From a virus (lineage: Duplodnaviria; Heunggongvirae; Uroviricota; Caudoviricetes), in IMG/VR virus record IMGVR_UViG_2561511241_000008, positions 1-43,179 of that record: a DNA stretch of 43,179 bases; one strand, given 5' to 3'. Shown here one piece after another: positions 1,009-36,626 of this stretch (position 1 is its first letter; each line of letters opens with the position of its first letter). Both the position numbers and the translations under genes were made by a program. Below the pieces are notes generated by a model. It was given only the letters and a program-made list of their open reading frames with translations, did not search any database and had not been told where the DNA came from.

Positions 1009-1083
1009 GTCCTCTTAGTTAAATGGATATAACGAGCCCCTCCTAAGGGCTAATTGCAGGTTCGATTCCTGCAGGGGACACCA
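1009..1083 (+). tRNA. argW: tRNA-Arg (anticodon CCU)
   Basis: 75-nt cloverleaf read by eye: acceptor stem GTCCTCT/AGGGGAC, anticodon loop CTCCTAA, T-loop GGTTCGATTCC, 3' CCA. Confidence 0.9.
1054..1069. repeat. 16-bp segment of argW T-arm (TTGCAGGTTCGATTCC), copy 1 of 2
   Basis: exact 16/16 match to 42944-42959. Confidence 0.8.
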
Positions 1084-1244
1084 TTTATCAGTTCGCTCCC
1101 ATCCGTACCAGTCCGCAAAATCCCCTGAATATCAAGCCTTCCGTAGATTCACAGTTCGTAATGGTTCGCGTCAGATCGTTGACAGCCGCACTCCATGACG
1201 GGTAAAAAGTGGATAAAATAATTTTACCCACCGGATTTTTACCC

Positions 1245-6869: not shown

Positions 6870-7292
6870 TTAGTGCTTGTATAGCTTGAACTCCCTGTCG
6901 AGCCATAAGACATAAAAAGTGGCTCCTATCTTATAACCAACCATAGGTGCCTTAGAGCAAAATCTGAACGCAATGAAATCCACATCTTGAGTAACATGCT
7001 TAGGAATCGGAGCCTTTATCGCGTTTCTGGCAATTTTTTCCGTCCCAAGCCCGTGTTTATCAGATTTTCGTATCTCATCCCATGACATCTGACTTAACCT
7101 GAACAGCCTATCTGCAAATGCTGCCTTTTCATGCTTTTGGCAGCAATCTAGGCAATACCCCTTTTGTAGGTATCTAAGAGAAAATACAGGCGGACTTTTG
7201 TCTACATCATGAGATTCGTGATGGATAGAGAGGCCAACAGTAGCAGAGCTCTCTTTATCCCTCTGTTTTATTCTTCCCTTAACTCTAGACAT
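6870..7292 (-). CDS. Candidate toxin partner of the Panacea-domain gene
   Basis: 140 aa, starts 5 nt after upstream gene stop; C-terminal ...YVLWLDREFKLYKH; no confident family assignment. Confidence 0.5.
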   Translation of the reverse strand: MSRVKGRIKQRDKESSATVGLSIHHESHDVDKSPPVFSLRYLQKGYCLDCCQKHEKAAFADRLFRLSQMSWDEIRKSDKHGLGTEKIARNAIKAPIPKHVTQDVDFIAFRFCSKAPMVGYKIGATFYVLWLDREFKLYKH

Positions 7293-7297
7293 ACACG

Positions 7298-7741
7298 TCA
7301 GTTAATTAACGTTTTGAAAAAACCTTTCATAGAATCAAGTGTGATTTCTTGGCTAACCGCACCCTCAATGTAAGCATCTTTCCATGGCTGCTCTTCGTGA
7401 GTCATATTGCGCAGTTTCCAGGCAGAAAACTGACCATAAACTTTATACACCTCATCCAGCAATTCAATTTCATCTTCACTGAATTTTTTAGCGTCAAAGT
7501 TTTCTGGCGCAGGTAAAGCTCCGTTACCACAGTCCCTATATTTACGATACAATTCAGGAACTACTGGCCCATGCATCCAGGCTTCAATTTTCTCATTAAA
7601 TAGCGGCTTACCCAGAAGAACCAGAGAAAACCCTTGGGCATAATACGTCAACTTCTGAATTTTTAGGTTAGAGATAATGTCGCCACTTTCTTCATCGCAA
7701 TGCGCCAAGAAGTAGTCGGCGACATCAAAACAAGTGAGCAT
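7298..7741 (-). CDS. DUF4065/Panacea-domain protein (SocA/GepA-like antitoxin-type)
   Basis: motifs KIQKLTYYAQGFSL and WMHGPVVPELY characteristic of DUF4065; GGAGG 7 nt before ATG at 7741. Confidence 0.7.
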   Translation of the reverse strand: MLTCFDVADYFLAHCDEESGDIISNLKIQKLTYYAQGFSLVLLGKPLFNEKIEAWMHGPVVPELYRKYRDCGNGALPAPENFDAKKFSEDEIELLDEVYKVYGQFSAWKLRNMTHEEQPWKDAYIEGAVSQEITLDSMKGFFKTLIN

Positions 7742-8115
7742 AAACATACCTCCATCTTGATAGCCGCAGCTATGTATACAACTGTGTCAAGTTGCATTTA
7801 ATACCATAACAAAGCTGTCATCAATCCTTCAGAGGCTAACTTACAACCACTTTCTCGACACGTTTAAATCATTACGTTTCACATTTACTGCATTTTCGCC
7901 GAAGTTACCTATAAGGTAATGTCACATTTCCTGCAAGTTTCATGCAATGTTGAAAAGTGAGCTATTCACTTTTCTATGACACTAAACACCAAAAATAGCA
8001 CTTTTTGCTAAATCATTAGTCCAAGTTGTGGATGGTTTGTCGTTGACACGTTTTCACACACCACTCCACCAATACAGTATCATCTGGTATCCTGCTCAAA
8101 ACTAAGGAGGTTGGT

Positions 8116-8538
8116 GTGTTTGGTATATTAACGAGAAGCAAGATAAAAAAATTAAGGGCAGAACTCGCCGAAACACAAAAACTGGCTTCACATTTTTACA
8201 AAATGAAATACGACGCTGAAGAGCGTGCATTCGTTGAGTTATGCGATTTATCTATTCGTATGGGAGTAGAGCCAGATGTAGCGGCAAAAACTCAACAAGG
8301 CATTGATATACTTGCAGATGTTGTTTTAAACAGGCAATATGCGTTTTATCTAAACGAGAAGGCCATTCAGATTTACTCGCAAATCTTCCTCCTGGAAAAA
8401 AGAAGAGGAACTCACGATCGAGAAGAGTGGTTAAATGAAGTTGTTAAAAAATCTGGCTGGGAAGTTGTTTCATCAGAACTACCTCTTATTTGTGCTGATT
8501 TAATCGAAGAGGCAAAAGAGCGCCTATCCGATGGCTAG
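8116..8538 (+). CDS. Hypothetical 140-aa protein (position equivalent to P22 sieA region)
   Basis: GTG start with AGGAGG 5 nt upstream; convergent with gp16-like gene. Confidence 0.5.
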   Translation: MFGILTRSKIKKLRAELAETQKLASHFYKMKYDAEERAFVELCDLSIRMGVEPDVAAKTQQGIDILADVVLNRQYAFYLNEKAIQIYSQIFLLEKRRGTHDREEWLNEVVKKSGWEVVSSELPLICADLIEEAKERLSDG

Positions 8539-16260: not shown

Positions 16261-17514
16261 TTACTGCCCGGCAATAACGATGCCCGTATATTCAGGAACA
16301 AGTACAGAGCAACCGTACAGAGTGGTGAAACGAGCAGTGGTTACGCCTTTGATGTGGTCGAAGGCGTAAGACATGATCAGCGTAGCGCCCTGCTCGGTGG
16401 TTGCTGTCATTACCTGTGGACCCTGACCAGTCGGGAACGCTAGTTTGCCGTACATCAGCTCAACAGAACCATCAGCCCAGAACAGGTTAGCAGGTGCTGC
16501 GTTCTTGTTGAGAATGGTGATTGCTGCTGATTCTGCCGGTTTGGCATCGACGTTTGCATATGGACGACTCGCAACATCGGTATTTTCAACAGGGAGAATC
16601 TTTGGAGAGATTGTTACGGTAGTTCCGCTAACAGCCAGAACACGGAATACCTGCGGTTGCCCGGTGGTATCTTTTGTGATCTGGTGTACGGAATTCACAC
16701 CGGCAATGGTGAACGCATCACCAACCTGCAAGCCAGATGCAGATACCGTAATAGTCCCCTGTCGGTTATCAACTGGCATACCATTTGAATCTTTCGCTTC
16801 AACCTTGTGTTCAGGTTGGCCTGATACTGTCAAGGATTCAGCGCTTCCTTTCGGTAATCGACCAGAAATATCGGTCTTGTAGCTATCAAAGGAAGCAACC
16901 GGAGGGATCTGCGCTTTTTCGTATGCTGTCAGGGTTGCGCCCTGAGCGTAGGCACGGTGACCAAGCTCGCCAGCAAGGTCTTTGTAGTTGAAGGGGTTCC
17001 AGAAAGAGCGACGGTTGATACCCTGCGGTACACCAATCGCCGTCATGGTGGCATCAATACCTGCCGCACAGTTCCACAAATCACGGCCCTGTGTACCTGT
17101 GGTTGAGTCAGACATTGTGATCACGTTAGTAGCACGCTGCGTAACCATGGAAATCAGGTCAGAGTCAATCTGTGCAGCAAGGCGCATACCTGCGGCGCGA
17201 CCAGCTTCAGTTTTATGCTCAGGGTCACGCATTTCACGCGCATCCAGAGTGTACAGAATGTTTTTCGGCTCCTTGAACACAGAAGGAACAAGGCGCTGAA
17301 CCAGTGCTGTAGGCGTTTTGCTGCTGAGATCGAGGCCTTCCTCAATGTTCATGTGGTAATGCTGCGGACGATACAGAACATCACCTGCTCGCTGCATTGC
17401 TGTATCACCGGGACGGAATTTTTTAGCGTTACGGGAAACTACGCAGGCGGCCTCAAAGCCTTCAACGTAGTTTTCGAACATGATTTCAAGGTTTTTTGCT
17501 AATTGGTTAGCCAT
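16261..17514 (-). CDS. Major coat protein (P22 gp5-like)
   Basis: 417 aa; C-terminal region resembles P22 coat; synteny. Confidence 0.85.
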   Translation of the reverse strand: MANQLAKNLEIMFENYVEGFEAACVVSRNAKKFRPGDTAMQRAGDVLYRPQHYHMNIEEGLDLSSKTPTALVQRLVPSVFKEPKNILYTLDAREMRDPEHKTEAGRAAGMRLAAQIDSDLISMVTQRATNVITMSDSTTGTQGRDLWNCAAGIDATMTAIGVPQGINRRSFWNPFNYKDLAGELGHRAYAQGATLTAYEKAQIPPVASFDSYKTDISGRLPKGSAESLTVSGQPEHKVEAKDSNGMPVDNRQGTITVSASGLQVGDAFTIAGVNSVHQITKDTTGQPQVFRVLAVSGTTVTISPKILPVENTDVASRPYANVDAKPAESAAITILNKNAAPANLFWADGSVELMYGKLAFPTGQGPQVMTATTEQGATLIMSYAFDHIKGVTTARFTTLYGCSVLVPEYTGIVIAGQ

Positions 17515-17532: not shown

Positions 17533-18426
17533 TTATTTTTTTGCCTTTTTAGCGGCGAAATACGGCGTCCAGTCACCAGTTTCCAGCGCCCTGGCTTTCA
17601 ATTTGTCGAGGTTGTTGATTACTGCGCCGTTGCTCCCCTTAACTGTCGGGGTTGTGGCTGCCGTGGTTTTTGCTTTTGGCATGATTCTGGCCTTCGATTC
17701 GATACGTTCCAGCAGACGACCAATTGCTACGGGGTTTGTAGCTTCTGCCAGTTGCTTGCGCAGTTCAGCGTTGCGGCCGAGTGCCAGAACAACGATTTCC
17801 GGCTTCTCTGACTCAAACAGGATCGCGTTTTGTGTCTCGATGGGAACTTCCTCGAGTACGGCCTGCTCAGCTTCCTGATAGCCAGGAACTTTGAGAGCCT
17901 TAACACGTTGCTGATATTTGGATAATCGCTCTTGATAGGCAGCCTGAAGCTCCTGCTCCTTCTGCTTGCGAGCCATCTCCTGTTGCTGGTACTTGCCGTT
18001 ATCCTCTGCCCACTTAGCCATGCGTTGCTGGTAGATTTCTTCATCGAAACCGATGTCCTCATCATCCAGTTTTGGCATTCGCGGTGGTTGAGTGATTACC
18101 GGCTGCTGCTCGACGGGTTTCTGAGACTGACGCATCAGCTCTTTCAGCTCGCGGTATTTCTCTTTAATCGTCTTGCGCAGGTGTTTTACCAGTCCATGCT
18201 CTGCGCCATCTTCGCTGGTTGGCGAATCCAGCTTTTCGTCACCAAAGTAGAATTCCTGTTCTGATTCGTCGTCATCAGTTTCAGTAGCTTCCTCTGCATC
18301 ATTGCCGGAGGACTCACTGCCATCTTCTGTTTCGACTTCTTCAGCCAGTTCGACATCATCAGGAATCTGCTCTGACGCGTCGGTTTCGATTTCAACTTCT
18401 GGTGTGTTTTCTGCCATCTGGTCCAT
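17533..18426 (-). CDS. Scaffolding protein (P22 gp8-like)
   Basis: 297 aa, acidic N-terminus, coiled-coil, basic C-terminus. Confidence 0.8.
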   Translation of the reverse strand: MDQMAENTPEVEIETDASEQIPDDVELAEEVETEDGSESSGNDAEEATETDDDESEQEFYFGDEKLDSPTSEDGAEHGLVKHLRKTIKEKYRELKELMRQSQKPVEQQPVITQPPRMPKLDDEDIGFDEEIYQQRMAKWAEDNGKYQQQEMARKQKEQELQAAYQERLSKYQQRVKALKVPGYQEAEQAVLEEVPIETQNAILFESEKPEIVVLALGRNAELRKQLAEATNPVAIGRLLERIESKARIMPKAKTTAATTPTVKGSNGAVINNLDKLKARALETGDWTPYFAAKKAKK

Positions 18427-18516
18427 TTGTTACCCCTGTTTACTCGATGTTCAGCCCATCGGAAGGCAATAGGGTGCCAGGCCTCATAAAGACAGCCATT
18501 GCACGTTATGGGTTAA

Positions 18517-18735
18517 TTACTGCTGTGGTTGTTGCTGAGTTGATTTTTGCAGGATGCTGCTGATGTCCATGCGCTGCGCATGGCCTTGCGCCTGACTTTT
18601 CAGGACAAGCTCTGCATCAGCACGGGCATTATCTCCTTGCTGTTGCTGGAACTGTCCGAGCAGTTTCAGCGCCTCACGGATATCAGATTTTTGCTGGCTA
18701 TCGGCAGATGCGAGGATTTTCACAACATTTGCCGC
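18517..18735 (-). pseudogene. Portal protein C-terminal fragment displaced by IS insertion
   Basis: in-frame continuation AANVVKILASADSQQKSDIREALKLLGQFQQ... aligns with recalled P22 portal C-terminus. Confidence 0.75.
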
Positions 18736-18777
18736 TGAACCGCCCCGGGTTTCCTGGAGAGTGTTTTATCTGTGAAC

Positions 18778-19668
18778 TCAGGCTGCCAGATCATTGTTTC
18801 CGATGGAAGCATAATAAGCTTTTTCTGCTTCTGCCGGAGGAGTATGGCCCAGCCTTCCCAGCAATCGTCGATTGTTATACCAGTCCACCCACGTTAGTGT
18901 GGCCAGTTCCACTTCTGCACGGTTTTTCCAGCTCTTACGGTGTATTACCTCCGCTTTGTAAAGACCATTGATGCTCTCAGCCATCGCGTTGTCATACGAG
19001 TCGCCTGTACTCCCTGTTGATGCCAGTAATCCGGCTTCTTTTAGTCGCTCCGTATAGGCCAGTGACACATACTGAGAGCCTTTATCGCTGTAATGGATGG
19101 TGCCAGACGGACGACGGGCCCACAACGCCTGCTCCAGCGCATCCAGCACGAATGTCGTTTCCATAGACGATGAGACCCGCCCCCCCACGATGTATCCGGC
19201 AAACACATCAATGATAAACGCCACATAGACGAAGCCCTGCCATGTGCTGACGTAAGTAAAATCAGCCACCCACAGCTGGTCAGGACGTTCTGCCACGAAC
19301 TGACGGTTTACGCGGTCACCTGTGGCAACGGTTTTCCGGCTGACGGTAGTGCGGACCTTTTTACCCCGGAGAACACCGGCAAGTCCCATAACCGCCATGA
19401 GGCGCGCCACTGTACATCTGGCCACCCTGATTCCTTCCCGTAACAACTGACGCCAGACTTTACGCACACCGTACACCTGATGATTTTCATCGTATACGCG
19501 CTGTATCTCTCTCTTCAGCCAGTCATCGTGCTGCGCACGGGCACTGCGTTTATCCGGATGATGTCGCTGTTGCTGACAATGGTAATACGTTGACGGGGCA
19601 ATATGCAGTTCGCTGCATACCGGTCCGACCCCGTACTGCTCACGCAGCTTATCCAGCAGTGGCATCAT
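18778..19668 (-). CDS. IS3-family transposase OrfB (DDE catalytic domain)
   Basis: 296 aa with IS3-type motifs; ATGATG start overlapping orfA-frame end. Confidence 0.85.
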   Translation of the reverse strand: MMPLLDKLREQYGVGPVCSELHIAPSTYYHCQQQRHHPDKRSARAQHDDWLKREIQRVYDENHQVYGVRKVWRQLLREGIRVARCTVARLMAVMGLAGVLRGKKVRTTVSRKTVATGDRVNRQFVAERPDQLWVADFTYVSTWQGFVYVAFIIDVFAGYIVGGRVSSSMETTFVLDALEQALWARRPSGTIHYSDKGSQYVSLAYTERLKEAGLLASTGSTGDSYDNAMAESINGLYKAEVIHRKSWKNRAEVELATLTWVDWYNNRRLLGRLGHTPPAEAEKAYYASIGNNDLAA

Positions 19669-19746
19669 TTTTTCCAGAGGCGGTCGAACTCCGCCTTCGC
19701 AAAATAAGCGGAAGCCTGGCGAAGGATATCGTTACTGCGGCGCAGT

Positions 19747-19992
19747 TCACGATTTTTCACGTTCCAGCTCTTTCAGACGCTGACGTTCAGCGCTGGTGAG
19801 CCCACCATCACCGCCCCCGGTATCCCGCTCATGCTGGCGAACCCAGACACGCAGAGTCTCCGGCGTACAGCCAATCTTTGGGGCAATGGAACAAATTGCC
19901 GCCCACTGTGAGTCATATTCATCCTGACTTTCCAGAACCATACGAATCGCCCGCTGACGGACTTCGGGGGAAAAACGAGTATTTTTAGTCAT
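19747..19992 (-). CDS. IS3-family OrfA (helix-turn-helix), apparently truncated
   Basis: [21 protein letters not shown]... IS629-type OrfA N-terminus; ORF stops at 19747 while the OrfA-like tail continues in another frame. Confidence 0.75.
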
Positions 19993-20043
19993 CCTGTTTA
20001 CCTCTTTCTCAGGGAGTTTAGTCTCCAGGATTTCCGGGGCGGT

Positions 20044-22035
20044 TCACGCTGCAACCTGAGCATCCGTCTGTGCCTGGAATGCTTTAACCTGAATGGCTGC
20101 CTGCTCGTTCTGCGCTTTCTGCAATTCAGCCTGACCAGCAAGAAGCTGACCTTGCGCTGCAACCATAGCCGGATCTGGCTGACTGGCCTGTTGTTGTTTC
20201 GCCTGTTCAACCATCTGCTGTTCTTCAGGCGTTCTCGGCTTGATAACGCCAGACAGAAGCAACTGATTGCGGTTGTATTCTTTCAGGTCGTCCATCCCTT
20301 CGCCGTCCATATTGTCGAGAATCATCGACGATACAAGGTCGTGCTTCGGCGTTCCTGGTGGGATAAGTGCCAGCATGGAAAGTAACGACTTAACCGTTGC
20401 GTCACGGCGAGTAGCGAACGACTGACCGACATCGACAGTCACTTCATAGTTACCCTGCGAAAGGTCGTTAAGCGCGATAACCTGCCCTGTCTGACGGTCA
20501 ACCACTTCACCAGTCATCAGCGCCACGTCATCGCTGCCGTCCTCATTAACGATACGCATCGGCGTATCGCTGCCATAGACTTCACGCGCCATAGAAAGCC
20601 ACACAACGCCAGCGCGACGCATAGATTTAGCCATGTTGTCCATGTAGATATAGGACTGCGTGTCCATCCGGTTAAAAATGCTATCAACGGTATCAGTAGC
20701 GACGTTGCTCGGCATGTTCTCAAGCTGCGACGCACCTGTAATTTGCTGAATAGCCGTTCCGGTGTACTGCAATAGCCCGGCAAGAGCTGGAGGCATTTGT
20801 GTCGGAGGCGTATAACTGCTGACCTGAGCCTGCGCAGTAATATCTCCGTTTTTGTTTTTCAGACTGACCATCGGCAGGAACGCCGGGCGCTTTTTGTTGC
20901 GCTCCGCCCAATGAGTGGCGAGAGGACCAGGAATCATGTCAACATCAACTACAGGAATGCCATCACCGCCAGCCTGAGTAGCGTTATCTGCAATCATGGA
21001 AACCATCAGGTTCTCAAGACGCTGTGCATCCATCGCTTTTGCTGCGTGTCCTTCAATTCGCTCCTGATTATCAACAAATGAGCGACGCCCATATACCGGG
21101 ATGAGAGGAATATGTTCGCCCGGAATACGCTTCGGTTCTTCCAGCCATTCAGCGCCAGACAGAAGACCGCAATAAACTCGGCGTTTCTTCACTGTCCGCT
21201 CACCAATCAGTTCGAATGCACCATCGGTCAGCTCGTCGACAATATCTTTGATTTGCTCTTCATCATAGATTGCCGTTTCTCCGCTAACAGGGTTACGCCA
21301 TGCTGTGAGCTTCACCTTCTCTATGCGAACTTCGTAGTAGCGACCAACATAGATGGCATCGGTCGTTGACCAGTCATATTGAGTGCCAGTGTCATCACGA
21401 GAAAGGCTTGCCGCGGTGGAATCAGGGTATTCAGCCTCGAACGCTTTAGGCGTCATGGAGAACATTTCCATAGCCCACATAGCATCAGAGCGGTCATATT
21501 GCTTGCTGTCCTGATCGAAGAAGACGCATGTTGCTGGGTCGTAAACCGGGAGAAGGCTTATACGGCGTTGCTCGTTACTCGGATCCATTTCATCTTCGTA
21601 ATCGGCACACATGCGGAAACAACCGAATCCACCCGTTACAGCATCATCAAATGCGTTATCACACGCTTCGCCACCGGATGTTTCCTGATAATCAGCGCGG
21701 AATTTGCCGTTCATCTTTTCGGCTAACGCTTCCGATGCCTTATCGTCCTTCGGTCTGAATTTAACGCTGATGCGATTCTGTCGATACTCGCCAATGATGC
21801 GATCACATTCACGGGCAATCTTATTCAGTTCAAAACGCGGATAATGCTCAAACCTGCCTTCATCAAATGAGTAACCAGCGTTTGTGCTGCCTTCCCACTG
21901 TGCGCCGGATACCCGGACGAAACGTTGAGCCTCAATAATCTGCTCACGCATATCCTGCGTTGCTGACCAGGCATTATCAAAGTTGCACAGCACCTTGCGA
22001 TGCCAGTCAGTCATCTTTCTATCATCAGCCATCAT
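20044..22035 (-). pseudogene. Portal protein (P22 gp1-like), 3' end interrupted by IS; reading frame terminates at TGA inside the IS inverted repeat
   Basis: N-terminal ~663 codons intact; stop at 20044-20046 lies in IS terminal repeat. Confidence 0.8.
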
Positions 22036-23528
22036 CCAACTCCGCAAGGTATGTTGTAGCTTGAGTAATCAATATCTTTAGGATCTTTGATGTCTCGCAT
22101 CTGTATTGCAAAACGCCTCATCATGTAGCCATAGCGAACAGCAGAAAGGATGTCGTCATTTAGCTTGACGATCTTCCCGTTCTCATCGCGGTGATACAGG
22201 CGAAACTCTTCAAAGAATGGCTCGCAGGTGTTAAATACCTTGAAACGACCGTCGAGCATCATGTCGCGTATCTCTGCTATCCCGGGTTCGACCGCATTAC
22301 CTCCATCAGGCCATGTTGCATGATCTGGCAACATGTCGAACCCAGCTTCGGCGTATTGTTCCTTGAGCTGAGCGCCGCCTCCCTTTTCGTGCTGATGCCC
22401 GTCATGAGGCCAAGCCGTAGGGGTGTTTTTGCTCCATGCTTTAACAGCACTCCATGCCTCTGTCGCCTTCTTCTGTTTGGCCTTCCAGACGCGAGAAAGA
22501 TAAATCACGTCCTCGTCTTTATCCCACCAAAGCTGGATATGTGCCTGTGGGTGATCCCATCCGAAGTCCATTGCATTGATGACGTAGAAGTGATCAGGAC
22601 ACTCGAACGGCTGACACTTAATCGTCTCTTCCGGTATCTGGAAGATTCGACCGCTACCCATCGTAGGAATACCGCGAGCACGCGCCTCTCTCTCATGCTC
22701 GGGATAGGATGCGATGATTTGCTCTTTCTGTTCGTCTGTGTAGTGCTCAGCGTCATAGATGGTCATGTTGACCACTTTCTGCGACTTGCTGGGATTCTTC
22801 AGGAACTTGGTAACAACGTCAGACATCCCCATCAGCGGGGTAAACGTCAGAATTGAGAATTGCCCGTATTTGTTGGTACGGGTAAGACCTTCGCCATAAA
22901 TGCTGTATGGTGGCTCTTCGTCAAACCACACGCCGTGGATTGTGTCACCCTGCCAGCGAGCGCGGCCTTGCGAGTATGGTTTGAAGTAGCAGATTGAAAT
23001 GCCATCTTCAACGCCATCAGCCGTGTGATGCTTAACCAGAAGATGATCAACAAGGTTCGGAAAGAAAGGAGACTTCTTCCAGCTAATGATGTCTTCTTTA
23101 GGTATGGAACCGTAGCCTGGCTCATCATTCTCTTCGATACGACCACACAGGATGCGTTGAGTCGTTTTGGTTACAGTCTCGTTTGTCTCGCCGCCAATCC
23201 AGAAGACAACAGGCTCATAGAAACGCTTACCTTTCCACTCACCGCCATATTTACCATCAGCAGGATAGCCTTTTGTGCCCGGGTAACGCCCGGTAAGGTG
23301 AAACGCGACTTCAGCAGCACCAGTAAATGACTTACCAAGCTGGTTACCAGCCATAAAACATCGCTCTGGATAGTCATGCCCGGCGTCGATGAACTCACGC
23401 TGTTTGCTGTATGGCGTAAATTCATATAGCAGGTGTGTGTTACGGTAGTTCTCTTCTTCTTCGAGTAGCTCGAGCAATTCGATTTGCTCTTCGTCGCTCA
23501 AGTTATCAAGAATCGCGTCCAGTTCCAC
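22032..23528 (-). CDS. Terminase large subunit (P22 gp2-like)
   Basis: 498 aa, acidic N-terminus, ATPase-like motifs; synteny. Confidence 0.85.
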
Positions 23529-23994
23529 GGTTGAATAGCTCCTTGATACGAGAGCGCCGCTTATCGCGATCTCCCTTATCAGGTGTCACGTCTTCAACTT
23601 GCGACTGCTCTTTGAGGCCCAAATCACGGGCGATGATGTTAGCGTTGAGAAGGTCAGCGGCTGCGCCAGAGAATTTCTGGTCGTAGATGATGTCTTCCGC
23701 TCGTGATGTGACGTCAGAAAAACCTTCCATTGACCGGAAGGTTCCCCATGTTTGCCTGGTGATATCAAGGAAGGTACACAATCCTGAAATAGTCATGGCT
23801 CGCATCTTAGGGACATTAGCCTTAATTATTTCTCCCTGATATGAAAATACCTTACCCTCCCATAGCGGGTTATCATCAGCCCACTCGAAGTATTCACAAC
23901 AAGCAGCCCACAGCGCCTCAGGCGATTCGAATTTAGGATTTCGCCCATGACTACTGCGGGCCTCCCAAAATCGGTTGCCCTTTGGTGCTGCCAT
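23506..23994 (-). CDS. Terminase small subunit (P22 gp3-like)
   Basis: 162 aa; overlaps TerL start. Confidence 0.75.
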
Positions 23995-27651: not shown

Positions 27652-28275
27652 CTAACGTGTGACCGCATTCAAAATGTTGTCTGCGATTGACTCTTCTTTG
27701 TGGCATTGCACCACCAGAGCGTCATACAGCGGCTTAACAGTGCGTGACCAGGTGGGTTGGGTAAGATTTGGGATTAGCATCGTCACAGCGCGATATGCGG
27801 CGCTTGCTGGCATCCTTGAATAGCCGACACCTTTGCATCTTCCGCATTCTTTCTCAACAACTCTCCCCCACTGCTCTGTTTTTGCTATATCAACCGCACG
27901 GCCTGTACCGTGACAATCTCTGCATCTTGCGCCAGGCGTCGCGGCACTACGGCAATAATCCGCATAAGCGAATGTTGCGAGCACTTGCAGTACCTTTGCC
28001 TTAGTATTTCCTTCGAGCTTTGCCACACCACGGTATTTCCCCGATACCTTGTGTGCAAATTGCATCAGATAGTTGATAGCCTTTTGTTTGTCGTTCTGGC
28101 TGAGTTCGTGCTTACCACAGAATGCAGCCATTCCGAATCCGGCTTGTGATTGCGCCATCCCCATAGCAGCCATCACATCAGTACCGGAAAGAGAGTCAGA
28201 AGCCGTGGCCCGTGGTGAGTCACTCATCATCGGGCTTTTTGGCGAATGAAATTTAGCCACGCTTTCGAGTCTCAT
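27652..28275 (-). CDS. Q: Late antiterminator Q (lambda-type)
   Basis: 207 aa; cysteine cluster CRDCHGTG...CGRCKGVG; position upstream of pR'. Confidence 0.9.
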
Positions 28276-35624: not shown

Positions 35625-36626
35625 ATGAATTCTATTGAAAATCATGATGTTTATGTGTATACAGGCGATATTCATCGTGATGGTTATCTTGATCTCACCA
35701 ATGAAATCAAGAAACGTAAGTCACAACATGGATTAAAAGAGAATGTTATCTTCTGTGTTGCTACTTATGGCGGTGATCCAAATGCAGGTTATCGTATAGG
35801 TAGAGCTCTACAACACCATTATGAAACGGTAACACTTTTAGTTGTTGGACCATGCAAAAGTGCTGGTACACTAATAGCTATAGCAGCCAATAAACTTGTT
35901 ATTGGTGACATGGGGGAGCTTGGGCCATTAGATATCCAACTGAAAAAAAACGATGAAATAGGTGAGATGAGTTCTGGTTTAGCTATCATGACAGCTCTTG
36001 ATGCTCTAAAGGAACGCTCTATTTCAGCGTTTAACTCACACCTTGTTAAGATAAGATACGAAAATCAGATAAGTACTAAAATGTCTGCTGATATCGCGAC
36101 CAGACTTACAGAAGCGTTGATAGCACCTATGGCCGCACAGATAGATCCAATAAAGCTTGGTGAACATCAGCGCGCAATGAGTATAGCTATCACTTATGGC
36201 CAACGATTAGCAGACAAACCAAGCAGCCTAAAAGAAGGGGCGTTAGGCAAACTAATAGCCTCATATCCTTCACATGGATTTGTTATAGACAGAAAAGAAG
36301 CCAAGGAACTTTTCAAGTGTGTTGAGCATCCTAAAGGTATAACAGAAATACTCTATAATCTTTTCTGTGACAAAATTCATAATGGTGACATTCCAACATT
36401 TGGAAAGCCGAGGGTTATTGATTGTACAACGTATCTACAAAAAGAGGAAAAAGCTAATGCCGAAGAATCTGCAACCGGAGATGGAAATTCTCAACAAGAT
36501 GTTGGAAAGCCAGATCCAAGAAGGTCACGATCTGGCAAAAAAAGCGGAACAACACCTGAACGAGATCAAGAAGGAATTGGAGCCGTATCAATTCAACCAC
36601 CAGATGAACAGCAACCTAATGCATGA
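35625..36626 (+). CDS. ClpP/SppA-fold serine peptidase-like protein in rexAB slot
   Basis: motifs TYGGDPNAGYRIGRAL and VVGPCKSAGTLIAIAA resemble ClpP/SppA-family active-site region; AGGGAG 8 nt before ATG; low-complexity C-terminal tail. Confidence 0.55.
   Translation: MNSIENHDVYVYTGDIHRDGYLDLTNEIKKRKSQHGLKENVIFCVATYGGDPNAGYRIGRALQHHYETVTLLVVGPCKSAGTLIAIAANKLVIGDMGELGPLDIQLKKNDEIGEMSSGLAIMTALDALKERSISAFNSHLVKIRYENQISTKMSADIATRLTEALIAPMAAQIDPIKLGEHQRAMSIAITYGQRLADKPSSLKEGALGKLIASYPSHGFVIDRKEAKELFKCVEHPKGITEILYNLFCDKIHNGDIPTFGKPRVIDCTTYLQKEEKANAEESATGDGNSQQDVGKPDPRRSRSGKKSGTTPERDQEGIGAVSIQPPDEQQPNA

Follow-up and report, generated by a model that had tools for sequence, protein, structure and literature searches.

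The window analysed here, a stretch of 43,179 nucleotides, contains a P22-like (Lederbergvirus) prophage inserted at argW in the porcine ETEC strain E. coli UMNK88 (CP002729.1). On the minus strand the gene order is TerL, portal, scaffold and coat, which is the expected position of the portal gene in P22-like phages, and it is this portal gene that is split by an insertion sequence of the IS3 family (Table 1). Including the insertion sequence (IS) the prophage measures about 42.2 kb, compared with 41.7 kb for P22 and 38.7 to 45.9 kb for the Lederbergvirus genome records.

Table 1. Coordinates of the insertion sequence, the two parts of the portal gene and the surrounding late genes in the window.
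Feature	Position	Strand	Remarks
Coat gene	16261..17514	-	late operon, after scaffold
Scaffolding protein gene	17533..18426	-	Pfam Phage-scaffold; full-length, 99.7% identity to ETEC1749; next late gene after the insertion
Displaced portal 3' end	18517..18732	-	codons 663-733 and stop, in phase with the portal
Target duplication, copy 2	18733..18735		CGC
IS629/IS1203-group element (IS3 family)	18736..20046	-	1311 bp; transposase genes co-oriented with the portal and the late operon
IRR (right terminal inverted repeat)	18736..18760	+	matches IRL
orfB, catalytic DDE (rve)	18778..19668	-	296 aa, frame intact; rve PF00665, HTH_21 PF13276, rve_3 PF13683
ALIL pseudoknot, RF01497	19594..19710	-	121.5 bits (gathering score 50), E = 1.4e-32, full-length
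A6 slippery run	19668-19673	-	inside the ALIL pseudoknot span, at the orfA/orfB overlap
orfA (HTH_Tnp_1, PF01527)	19747..19992	-	81 aa, 108 aa in intact copies; the source record likewise has an 81-aa gene
A5 run (T5 on the + strand)	19753..19757	-	copies of 1310 bp have A4; the added base shifts the orfA frame by +1
IRL (left terminal inverted repeat)	20022..20046	-	begins TGAACCGCCCCGG; adjoins the truncated portal
Truncated portal CDS	20044..22032	-	662 aa, MADDRK...DAQVAA; TGA 20046-20044 is the first three IS bases
Target duplication, copy 1	20047..20049		CGC on the + strand, GCG Ala662 codon of the portal
TerL (large terminase)	22032..23528	-	Terminase_6N and Terminase_6C (Pfam); full-length, 99.8% identity to rl0044; directly upstream of the portal
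Q	27652-28275		intact

Outside the portal gene the prophage is complete. The other CDSs are full-length when compared to the two closest intact relatives, mostly with 98-100% identity, and in the mosaic modules (Q, NinG, the phosphatase, Ant and the ejection proteins) the ORFs are unbroken and the family matches are full-length. Holin, endolysin, Rz, Q, the O/P-type replication genes and the integrase are all intact, as are the accessory genes, which include a Panacea-type TA module, a Clp-fold protease adjoining cI and a superinfection immunity gene. The set of genes for integration, immunity, replication, lysis, head, tail and ejection is thus interrupted by the split portal alone.

The two ends of the element, TGAACCGCCCCGG...CCGGGGCGGTTCA, have the form TG...CA and are identical over 13 of 13 positions, and over 22 of 25 when 25 bp are considered. 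The 13-mer TGAACCGCCCCGG occurs at two sites in the window, which are the two IS ends, and was absent from all 100 shuffles. The triplet CGC is doubled around the element and present as a single copy at the empty site of relatives. The original prediction of a 1311-bp IS3-family element with terminal repeats and a 3-bp CGC target duplication is therefore borne out by the repeat match, by the IS3 profiles and by the two copies of the triplet. Because TGA forms the first three bases of the IS and the element has landed in frame, translation of the portal stops exactly at the junction, as had been proposed, and the junction adds no foreign residue to the product. The presence of an IS in the portal gene, with its repeats, its duplication and the in-frame stop, is confirmed.

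Removal in silico of the IS and of one CGC yields an unbroken portal ORF of 733 amino acids. The portal matches the Pfam family P22_portal (PF16510) with E = 3.3e-170 and a score of 567.9 bits (cut-off 26.1), residues 16-640 covering positions 2-594 of the 594 of the profile. The best matches among solved structures are Sf6 gp3 (7sfs, E = 2.4e-249) and P22 gp1 (3lj5/5gai, E ~1e-119; 2e-119 for 3lj5 with the truncated product), and in the alignment to P22 gp1 the reconstructed portal takes part with residues 13-732. As start codon the ATG at 22032-22030 (MADDRK), which overlaps the TerL stop as TGATG and is the one annotated in relatives, is likelier than the start at 22035 chosen originally. 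The 662-amino acid product is deposited in exactly this form as "portal protein, partial [Escherichia coli]" in two separate NCBI protein records. The interpretation given earlier, i.e. an IS629-group insertion truncating a portal of the P22 family, is supported.

As the comparison with IS-free relatives suggested at the outset had anticipated, the site without the IS was recovered from many complete genomes of E. coli, the match being 2387 bp long (3701 - 1311 - 3); one example is ETEC1747, where a portal of 733 amino acids is annotated. Near-identical intact portals are found in the Lederbergvirus members Escherichia phage JEP4 and Shigella phage Sf101, whereas translation of the split gene in the window can reach residue 662 only. 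The reconstructed portal is 99.7% identical to that of the isolated phage JEP4 over residues 1-600 and 100% over residues 601-733, and 99.0% identical to that of Sf101. More distant is Sf6 gp3 (7sfs), whose core is 56.7% identical to that of the window portal, while the distal tail of the latter is closer to P22 (46.5%) than to Sf6 (30.4%). The IS-in-portal arrangement at this site was found neither among 50,697 phage records nor among 5,426 complete genomes of E. coli.

Downstream of the IS, the displaced 3' part encodes residues 663-733 of the JEP4 and ETEC1747 portals with 100% identity and shares 46.5% identity with residues 648-725 of P22, in keeping with the earlier view of an in-phase remnant aligning with the P22 portal tail. 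That view had counted about 72 removed codons. The C-terminal loss stands and amounts to 71 residues (663-733), the count over 18520-18735 being one too high because it includes the duplicated Ala codon. No family match was found for the displaced fragment, and a scan of positions 18300-20300 for promoter-like sites found none. Separate expression of the fragment, which would give a portal in two pieces, is unsupported, its only in-frame start being a GTG at 18723 with no Shine-Dalgarno sequence before it. Strong polarity on the downstream late genes was also considered and set aside: among terminator-like sites on the relevant (minus) strand there is one weak hairpin, not above chance, and the operon is Q-antiterminated with Q intact. 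Judged from the sequence, any polar effect would be minor.

The truncation point corresponds to A647 of P22 gp1 and to Q659 of Sf6 gp3. The P22 core (residues 1-602) has been crystallised in ring form together with gp4, the barrel being made up of residues 603-725 (PMC5290284). A complete C-terminal helical barrel would extend about 110-130 residues past the crown; the UMNK88 product ends at residue 662 and retains about 62 barrel residues (601-662). The truncation of the barrel, already recognised in the original prediction, can thus be refined to its distal part. In Sf6 virions the barrel helix is ordered from residue 600 to 671 (PMC9728967), so that the cut takes about 12 ordered helical residues in addition to the flexible tail. 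In virions about half of the barrel seen in the crystal structure is reportedly disordered, and the propensity of the last 70 residues of P22 to form coiled coils is low (PMC4992974). Procapsids and the protein in solution have an unfolded barrel, which folds only with DNA packed around it (PMC5290284). Barrel and lumen have been described as the storage place of the ejection proteins (bioRxiv 10.64898/2026.09.03.749273).

The nearest functional precedent is P22 dif1, which like the window portal has a C-terminal truncation of the barrel with core and proximal barrel kept in an otherwise complete phage genome. According to PMC4992974, which cites Eppler et al. 1991, dif1 (deletion of 676-725) is viable and its particles still contain the ejection proteins; dispensability is known for residues 676-725 only, and the sites for the ejection proteins are proposed to lie N-terminal to 676. 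While dif1 loses 50 residues, the window portal loses the equivalent of P22 648-725, 29 more, and its cut, unlike that of dif1, enters both the proposed ejection-protein-binding segment and the helix ordered in virions of Sf6. Portal function is uncertain because the cut falls inside this ordered helix and by those 29 residues exceeds the viable dif1 deletion. A full-text literature search for barrel truncations deeper than dif1 found no experimental data, and the literature searched likewise gave no account of infectious virions from induced UMNK88.

IS3-family elements transpose by a copy-out-paste-in mechanism via a circular intermediate. A copy of the IS629/IS1203 group transposed into a CGC target in the portal gene, leaving the 3-bp duplication usual for it and limiting the prophage to a 662-amino acid portal that comprises the whole core (wing, stem, clip and crown) and the stump of the barrel. 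Ring formation, incorporation into the procapsid, terminase docking and gp4 binding should persist, since it is the core that these steps use. The steps attributed to the barrel, which are retention of the last-packaged DNA, positioning of the ejection proteins and ordered ejection, would likely be impaired. On balance we lean, with some reserve, towards a prophage that the insertion and the resulting 662-amino acid portal have left crippled or of reduced fitness rather than fully productive. The original wording, which left undecided whether assembly and genome delivery are possible with the truncated product, claims as much as is warranted.

The main alternative is that the insertion is functionally silent, so that the 662-amino acid portal supports assembly, packaging and infection and the prophage is a viable temperate phage with an IS as cargo. 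A barrel of half length could suffice because the dif1 truncation is tolerated with ejection proteins present and roughly the distal half of the barrel has been suggested to lack order in virions (PMC4992974), the barrel being moreover unfolded in procapsids and in solution and folding only upon DNA packing (PMC5290284). The intactness of all other phage genes fits a recent or tolerated event, and with the IS included the genome stays within the size range of Lederbergvirus. Plaque-forming temperate phages from pigs, annotated with transposase genes, have been described as "99% identical" to a UMNK88 prophage that may be the present one or another (PMC11267873). Several observations speak against a silent insertion. 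The cut removes the equivalent of P22 648-675, the proposed place of the ejection-protein contacts (PMC4992974), together with the dozen or so residues of Sf6-ordered helix. The lost segment is better conserved between the window portal and P22 (46.5% identity) than the core (31.6%). None of the 50,697 phage records has the same IS in a P22-like portal. The portals of seven viable phages of the P22-like family, a small sample of natural portal lengths, have 687-796 amino acids, i.e. at least 687 in every case, and none comes down to 662. A silent insertion is for these reasons possible but rather doubtful, and a fully functional 662-amino acid portal in an IS-carrying prophage that is itself a viable temperate phage is a little more doubtful again. 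If it were so, nothing beyond the A647 equivalent of P22 would be needed, neither the conserved distal tail nor the segment 648-675 proposed to bind the ejection proteins, and the minimal barrel of P22-like phages would be shorter than known so far; the viable phage might even be among the plaque-formers resembling a UMNK88 prophage and carrying transposase genes of PMC11267873.

The finding is of use mainly for annotation: the otherwise complete 42-kb prophage of a reference porcine ETEC genome deserves a flag for its split portal gene, and a call of "intact" by prophage prediction would overstate its capacity to spread. In the second place the gene is a natural allele for testing how much of the barrel is required in headful sensing, ejection-protein positioning and DNA delivery, cut 29 residues deeper than dif1, the sole viable truncation published. 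As the same truncation can be made by design, the finding is convenient rather than surprising.

IS3-family insertions were found also in head genes of other P22-like prophages at argW. In CS5L the IS lies in the portal 156 codons before its end; in GF66.2 it lies in the middle of the portal and upstream phage DNA is lost; in the O111:H8 strain TW05614 it is in the coat gene. The IS variants of CS5L and GF66.2 are each 95.3% identical to the copy in the window. These sisters share with the window the argW site, the type of prophage, the IS family and the inactivation of a head-morphogenesis gene, but the insertion points and IS variants differ, and the insertions are independent events. Recurrence of this kind would be expected if the insertion had been positively selected as a domestication, loss of the portal locking in the accessory genes of benefit to the host at no risk of lytic killing, and the presence of the IS-bearing allele in at least 4-6 sequenced isolates and the intact state of the accessory genes would agree with this. 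Recurrent IS hits are, however, equally expected under neutral decay in IS-rich strains, and IS629 is found in many different genes of Stx prophages. A portal defect moreover leaves induction, replication and lysis running: with the lysis, replication, Q and integrase genes intact, it would not protect the induced cell. Selection for domestication is hence quite improbable, and the portal insertion is an ordinary kind of prophage damage.

The possibility that an IS copy was misplaced in the portal during repeat resolution, suggested by the multicopy nature of IS629-type elements, which often break or confuse assemblies, and by the source record being the only one in which the complete IS is contiguous with both flanks, is effectively refuted and has next to no chance of being right, given the perfect 3-bp duplication, the exact restoration of the frame upon removal, the two separate protein records of the exact 662-amino acid product and the same portal-to-IS junction in three independent public assemblies. 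These assemblies (GCA_012928645.1, SRR10947394 and ERR8651867), which derive from other samples, agree at the junction over 30 to 1238 bp of the IS and have flanks that are 100% identical. They cover the portal-to-IS side; the other junction, from the IS through the portal fragment to the scaffold gene, is represented by CP002729.1 only.

The assignment to IS629 made at first holds, as indicated by the ALIL pseudoknot, the domains of orfA and orfB and the full-length identity of 98.6-98.9% to the IS629 copies annotated by depositors in Stx phages of O157:H7, including Stx2 phage 1717, and of 98.9% to a copy named IS1203 by PGAP, the reference being such depositor- and PGAP-named copies. The NCBIfam model transpos_IS3 matches with 303.9 bits. 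A match to the IS is present in 4250 of 5426 complete E. coli genomes. The sequence variant is one of O26:H11 and O103 strains, which PGAP labels "IS3 family" only, and a 1310-bp copy in the O26:H11 strain 11368 has the same sequence save for one extra A in the window. The closest IS system is that of IS629 (isoforms IS1203/IS1203v and IS3411) in EHEC prophages, e.g. the Stx2-converting phage 1717 and the Stx2a_F/WGPS series, with which the element shares its size of about 1310 bp, the TG...CA ends, the TGAACCGCCCCGG repeat, the 3-bp duplication, the 0/-1 arrangement of orfA and orfB and the ALIL pseudoknot; the insertions in Stx phages likewise split a phage gene, many being annotated there as an N-terminal and a C-terminal pseudogene. 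Unlike the EHEC cases, the phage hit here is a P22-like podovirus in porcine ETEC and not a lambdoid Stx phage, and unlike a typical IS629 the present copy has 1311 bp and a +1 frameshift in orfA.

It is the extra A, a new point beyond the original prediction, that accounts for the length of 1311 bp instead of the canonical 1310 bp. It is a single indel at about position 290 of the IS, as seen in pairwise alignments and by comparison of the orfA frames with four other copies; orfB lies in the -1 frame relative to orfA, as read from the 1310-bp copies. The element falls short of an autonomous one, with orfA ending at codon 81 and two stops between orfA and orfB. The extra A is known from one deposited assembly and lies within a homopolymer, so that a sequencing error is possible. 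Assembly L005, the only other one crossing the IS, lacks it and has 100% identical flanks, but its IS combines two IS629 variants, owing to an assembly path through other copies or to gene conversion, and so speaks neither for nor against the extra A. The transposase of this group is OrfAB, made by -1 frameshifting, and excision requires the transposase and the IS-excision enhancer IEE (bioRxiv 10.1101/2023.06.07.543989, PMC9943667). It is already well documented that IS629 inserts into prophage genes and that transposase together with IEE can reverse this. Since the orfA stop lies upstream of the programmed frameshift site, OrfAB is probably not made, and the copy is by its sequence probably unable to produce its own transposase. 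Repair of the portal by excision of the IS would then depend on the transposase of other copies and on the enhancer.

An IS629-group element has inserted into the portal gene of a P22-like (Lederbergvirus) prophage with duplication of three bases, and translation of the portal ends at the junction. The whole prophage lies inside the window, which corresponds to positions 2,813,317-2,856,495 of CP002729.1 according to an exact search with the scaffold protein; this is the record of the porcine ETEC strain UMNK88 (PMC4358887). Direct reading of 18400-22200 and a script both returned the boundaries, inverted repeats and CGC duplication of the original prediction: the ends carry TGAACCGCCCCGG, matched at 13 of 13 positions and at 22 of 25 over 25 bp. 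This 13-mer has no further occurrence in the 43-kb window and appeared in 0 of 100 shuffles. The element encodes orfA (HTH_Tnp_1 domain) and orfB (HTH_21 and rve domains, Pfam), matches NCBIfam transpos_IS3 with 304 bits and, where orfA and orfB overlap, contains the ALIL frameshift pseudoknot in full length (RF01497, 121.5 bits). At the nucleotide level one extra base is its sole difference from a 1310-bp copy in O26:H11 str. 11368, and it shares 98.9% identity with a copy named IS1203 by PGAP and 98.6-98.9% with depositor-annotated IS629 in O157:H7 Stx phages; the label "IS629-like" is therefore correct.

Coordinates of the portal gene, the inserted element and other prophage features in the window
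Feature	Coordinates	Strand	Remarks
tRNA-Arg(CCT)	1009-1083		left end, with yfdC and intS
att core	1069-1084		CTGCAGGGGACACCAT, 16 bp; 3' end of tRNA-Arg(CCT); also 23528-23543 in comparison locus L007
140-aa ORF	6870-7292	minus	phrog_8366; adjoins Panacea gene
Panacea-domain gene	7298-7747	minus	SocA/PanA antitoxin-like
140-aa ORF	8116-8538	plus	antiparallel to neighbouring late genes
Reconstructed portal	18517-22032		IS and one CGC deleted in silico
Displaced portal 3' end	18517-18732	minus	in frame with truncated CDS after deletion of IS and one CGC; 733 aa in total
CGC	18733-18735
IS3-family element, IS629-like	18736-20046	orfA on minus	1311 bp
orfA	19747-19992	minus	premature stop (codon 81, not 108), before the slippery site
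T5 run in orfA	19753-19757	plus	A5 in orfA
CGC	20047-20049
Truncated portal CDS	ATG 22032 to TGA 20046-20044	minus	662 aa; MADDRK start as in annotated relatives
Clp-fold serine protease gene	35625-36626	plus	SDH family; 333 aa; phrog_21683

The portal ATG overlaps the terminase stop as TGATG, and from the stop codon of TerL the long minus-strand ORF continues into the IS. As predicted, and as ORF list and script agree, it stops within the terminal repeat; since this TGA is the repeat's first three bases, no IS-encoded residues are appended. The portal matches PF16510 over the whole profile (E = 3e-170), and its best matches among solved structures are Sf6 gp3 (7sfs, E = 2e-249) and P22 gp1 (3lj5/5gai, E about 1e-119), the latter alignment reaching the last residues of the reconstructed protein. 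Sequence similarity assigns the interrupted gene to the P22 portal family. The claim that the displaced fragment is in phase and resembles the P22 tail also held: it completes the 733-aa frame, is 46.5% identical to P22 and is 100% identical to residues 663-733 of the isolated phage JEP4. This lost part is better conserved relative to P22 than the core (31.6%). The reconstructed portal looks mosaic, its core being nearer Sf6 (56.7%) than P22 and its distal 71 residues nearer P22 than Sf6 (30.4%), a pattern suggestive of either recombination in the stretch encoding the barrel or a more strongly constrained tail.

In a five-way alignment residue 662 lies opposite P22 A647 and Sf6 Q659. The P22 portal is divided into core (1-602) and barrel (603-725) (PMC5290284), and the barrel helix of Sf6 is ordered in virions over 600-671, with 672-708 invisible (PMC9728967). 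The 662-aa portal thus keeps all of the core and about 62 residues of the barrel; missing are roughly 12 residues at the end of the ordered helix and all of the flexible tail beyond them. It should still assemble into rings, undergo scaffold-dependent incorporation, dock the terminase and bind gp4, because these functions map to the core; P22 1-602 crystallises with gp4 (PMC5290284). At risk would be the functions associated with the barrel: holding back the DNA packaged last, storing and positioning the ejection proteins, and ejecting in the proper order. We judge it fairly probable that the phage is impaired or defective. Essentially normal function seems to us possible and rather unlikely: the P22 portal mutant dif1, in which 676-725 is deleted, is viable, and the distal half of the barrel has been argued to be disordered in virions (PMC4992974). 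However, the ejection-protein binding sites have been argued to sit N-terminal to 676 (PMC4992974); the cut is 29 residues deeper than in dif1, the only viable barrel truncation found in the literature; portals of viable phages of the family measure 687-796 aa in a small sample (n=7), and this IS was not found in a P22-like portal in any of 50,697 phage records. Little weight falls on other readings. Polarity on late genes is probably minor, since Q is intact and the relevant strand has a single weak terminator-like site.

That the interruption is an assembly artefact is effectively excluded. Many complete E. coli genomes, for example ETEC1747, have the site uninterrupted, as a 2387-bp match (3701 - 1311 - 3) with the portal annotated in one piece of 733 aa; isolated phages possess the intact allele (JEP4, 99.7%; Sf101, 99.0%); the exact 662-aa protein is deposited at NCBI as "portal protein, partial [Escherichia coli]"; and the portal-to-IS junction recurs unchanged, with flanks 100% identical, in three independent assemblies (GCA_012928645.1, SRR10947394, ERR8651867). 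Of the two predicted junctions it is this one that is independently confirmed, that between IS and displaced fragment being seen in CP002729.1 only. In the SRR10947394 contig (L005, 3621-4857) the truncated portal is identical and the IS differs from ours at 13 positions, mixing O26-type and IS1203-type variants, either because the assembly path ran through IS copies elsewhere or because the copies underwent gene conversion.

A detail absent from the original prediction is an extra A in orfA, where the A4 run of 1310-bp copies is A5, leaving two stop codons before orfB. The transposase of IS629/IS1203v is OrfAB, made by -1 frameshifting, and precise excision requires it together with the IS-excision enhancer IEE (bioRxiv 10.1101/2023.06.07.543989; PMC9943667). 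Since OrfA stops upstream of the slippery site, OrfAB synthesis would be blocked and this copy would be non-autonomous. The extra A, a base in a homopolymer of a repeat read in a single assembly, could be either a real inactivating mutation or a sequencing error; the consensus quality is arguably good, as the ~60 phage genes of the window contain no second frameshift.

IS629 insertions splitting prophage genes are abundantly documented, and IS3-family elements have independently entered the portal or coat genes of sister P22-like prophages at argW. IS-mediated decay of these prophages is recurrent, and ours is a further case of a familiar process, already annotated at NCBI as a partial portal beside an IS3 transposase; it is of modest value as a naturally occurring truncation that reaches further into the barrel than dif1. 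In E. coli CS5L (L001) the portal insertion lies 156 codons from the end, in GF66.2 (L002) the portal is likewise hit and upstream phage DNA is deleted, and in O111:H8 TW05614 (L009) IS1203 interrupts the coat gene.

The two closest intact relatives have 65 CDS in all, and on mapping these to the window every one with a counterpart proved full length, mostly at 98-100% identity; the replaced mosaic modules (Q, NinG, NinI-like phosphatase, Ant, gp20-like, gp16-like) consist of unbroken ORFs that match their profiles over the full length. By this comparison the IS is the sole visible lesion. After intS the order is tailspike, immI/ant, moron region, ejection-protein genes, gp14, needle, gp10, gp4, coat, scaffold, split portal, TerL, TerS, lysis genes, Q, nin, replication genes, cII/cro/cI, recombination region and TorI-like excisionase; comparison with rl0044 predicts attR ~74 bp beyond the end of the window. 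The prophage measures ~42.18 kb with the IS and ~40.87 kb without it, and in a phage that packages by the headful the additional 1.3 kb would come at the expense of terminal redundancy. Samples from pigs have yielded plaque-forming temperate phages, annotated with integrases and transposases, that are reported to have 99% identity at 99% coverage to an unspecified "prophage in UMNK88" (PMC11267873).

The Panacea gene and its adjoining ORF, which has a weak PADLOC NsnC match (1.8e-7), lie between immI and the ejection-protein genes and may constitute a toxin-antitoxin or defence moron. The ORF at 8116-8538, between this module and the gp16-like gene, has no match in Pfam, PHROG or PADLOC and may not be a gene. 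The Clp-fold protease gene matched no defence-system profile; it lies directly downstream of cI in the same orientation and is likely expressed from the lysogen.
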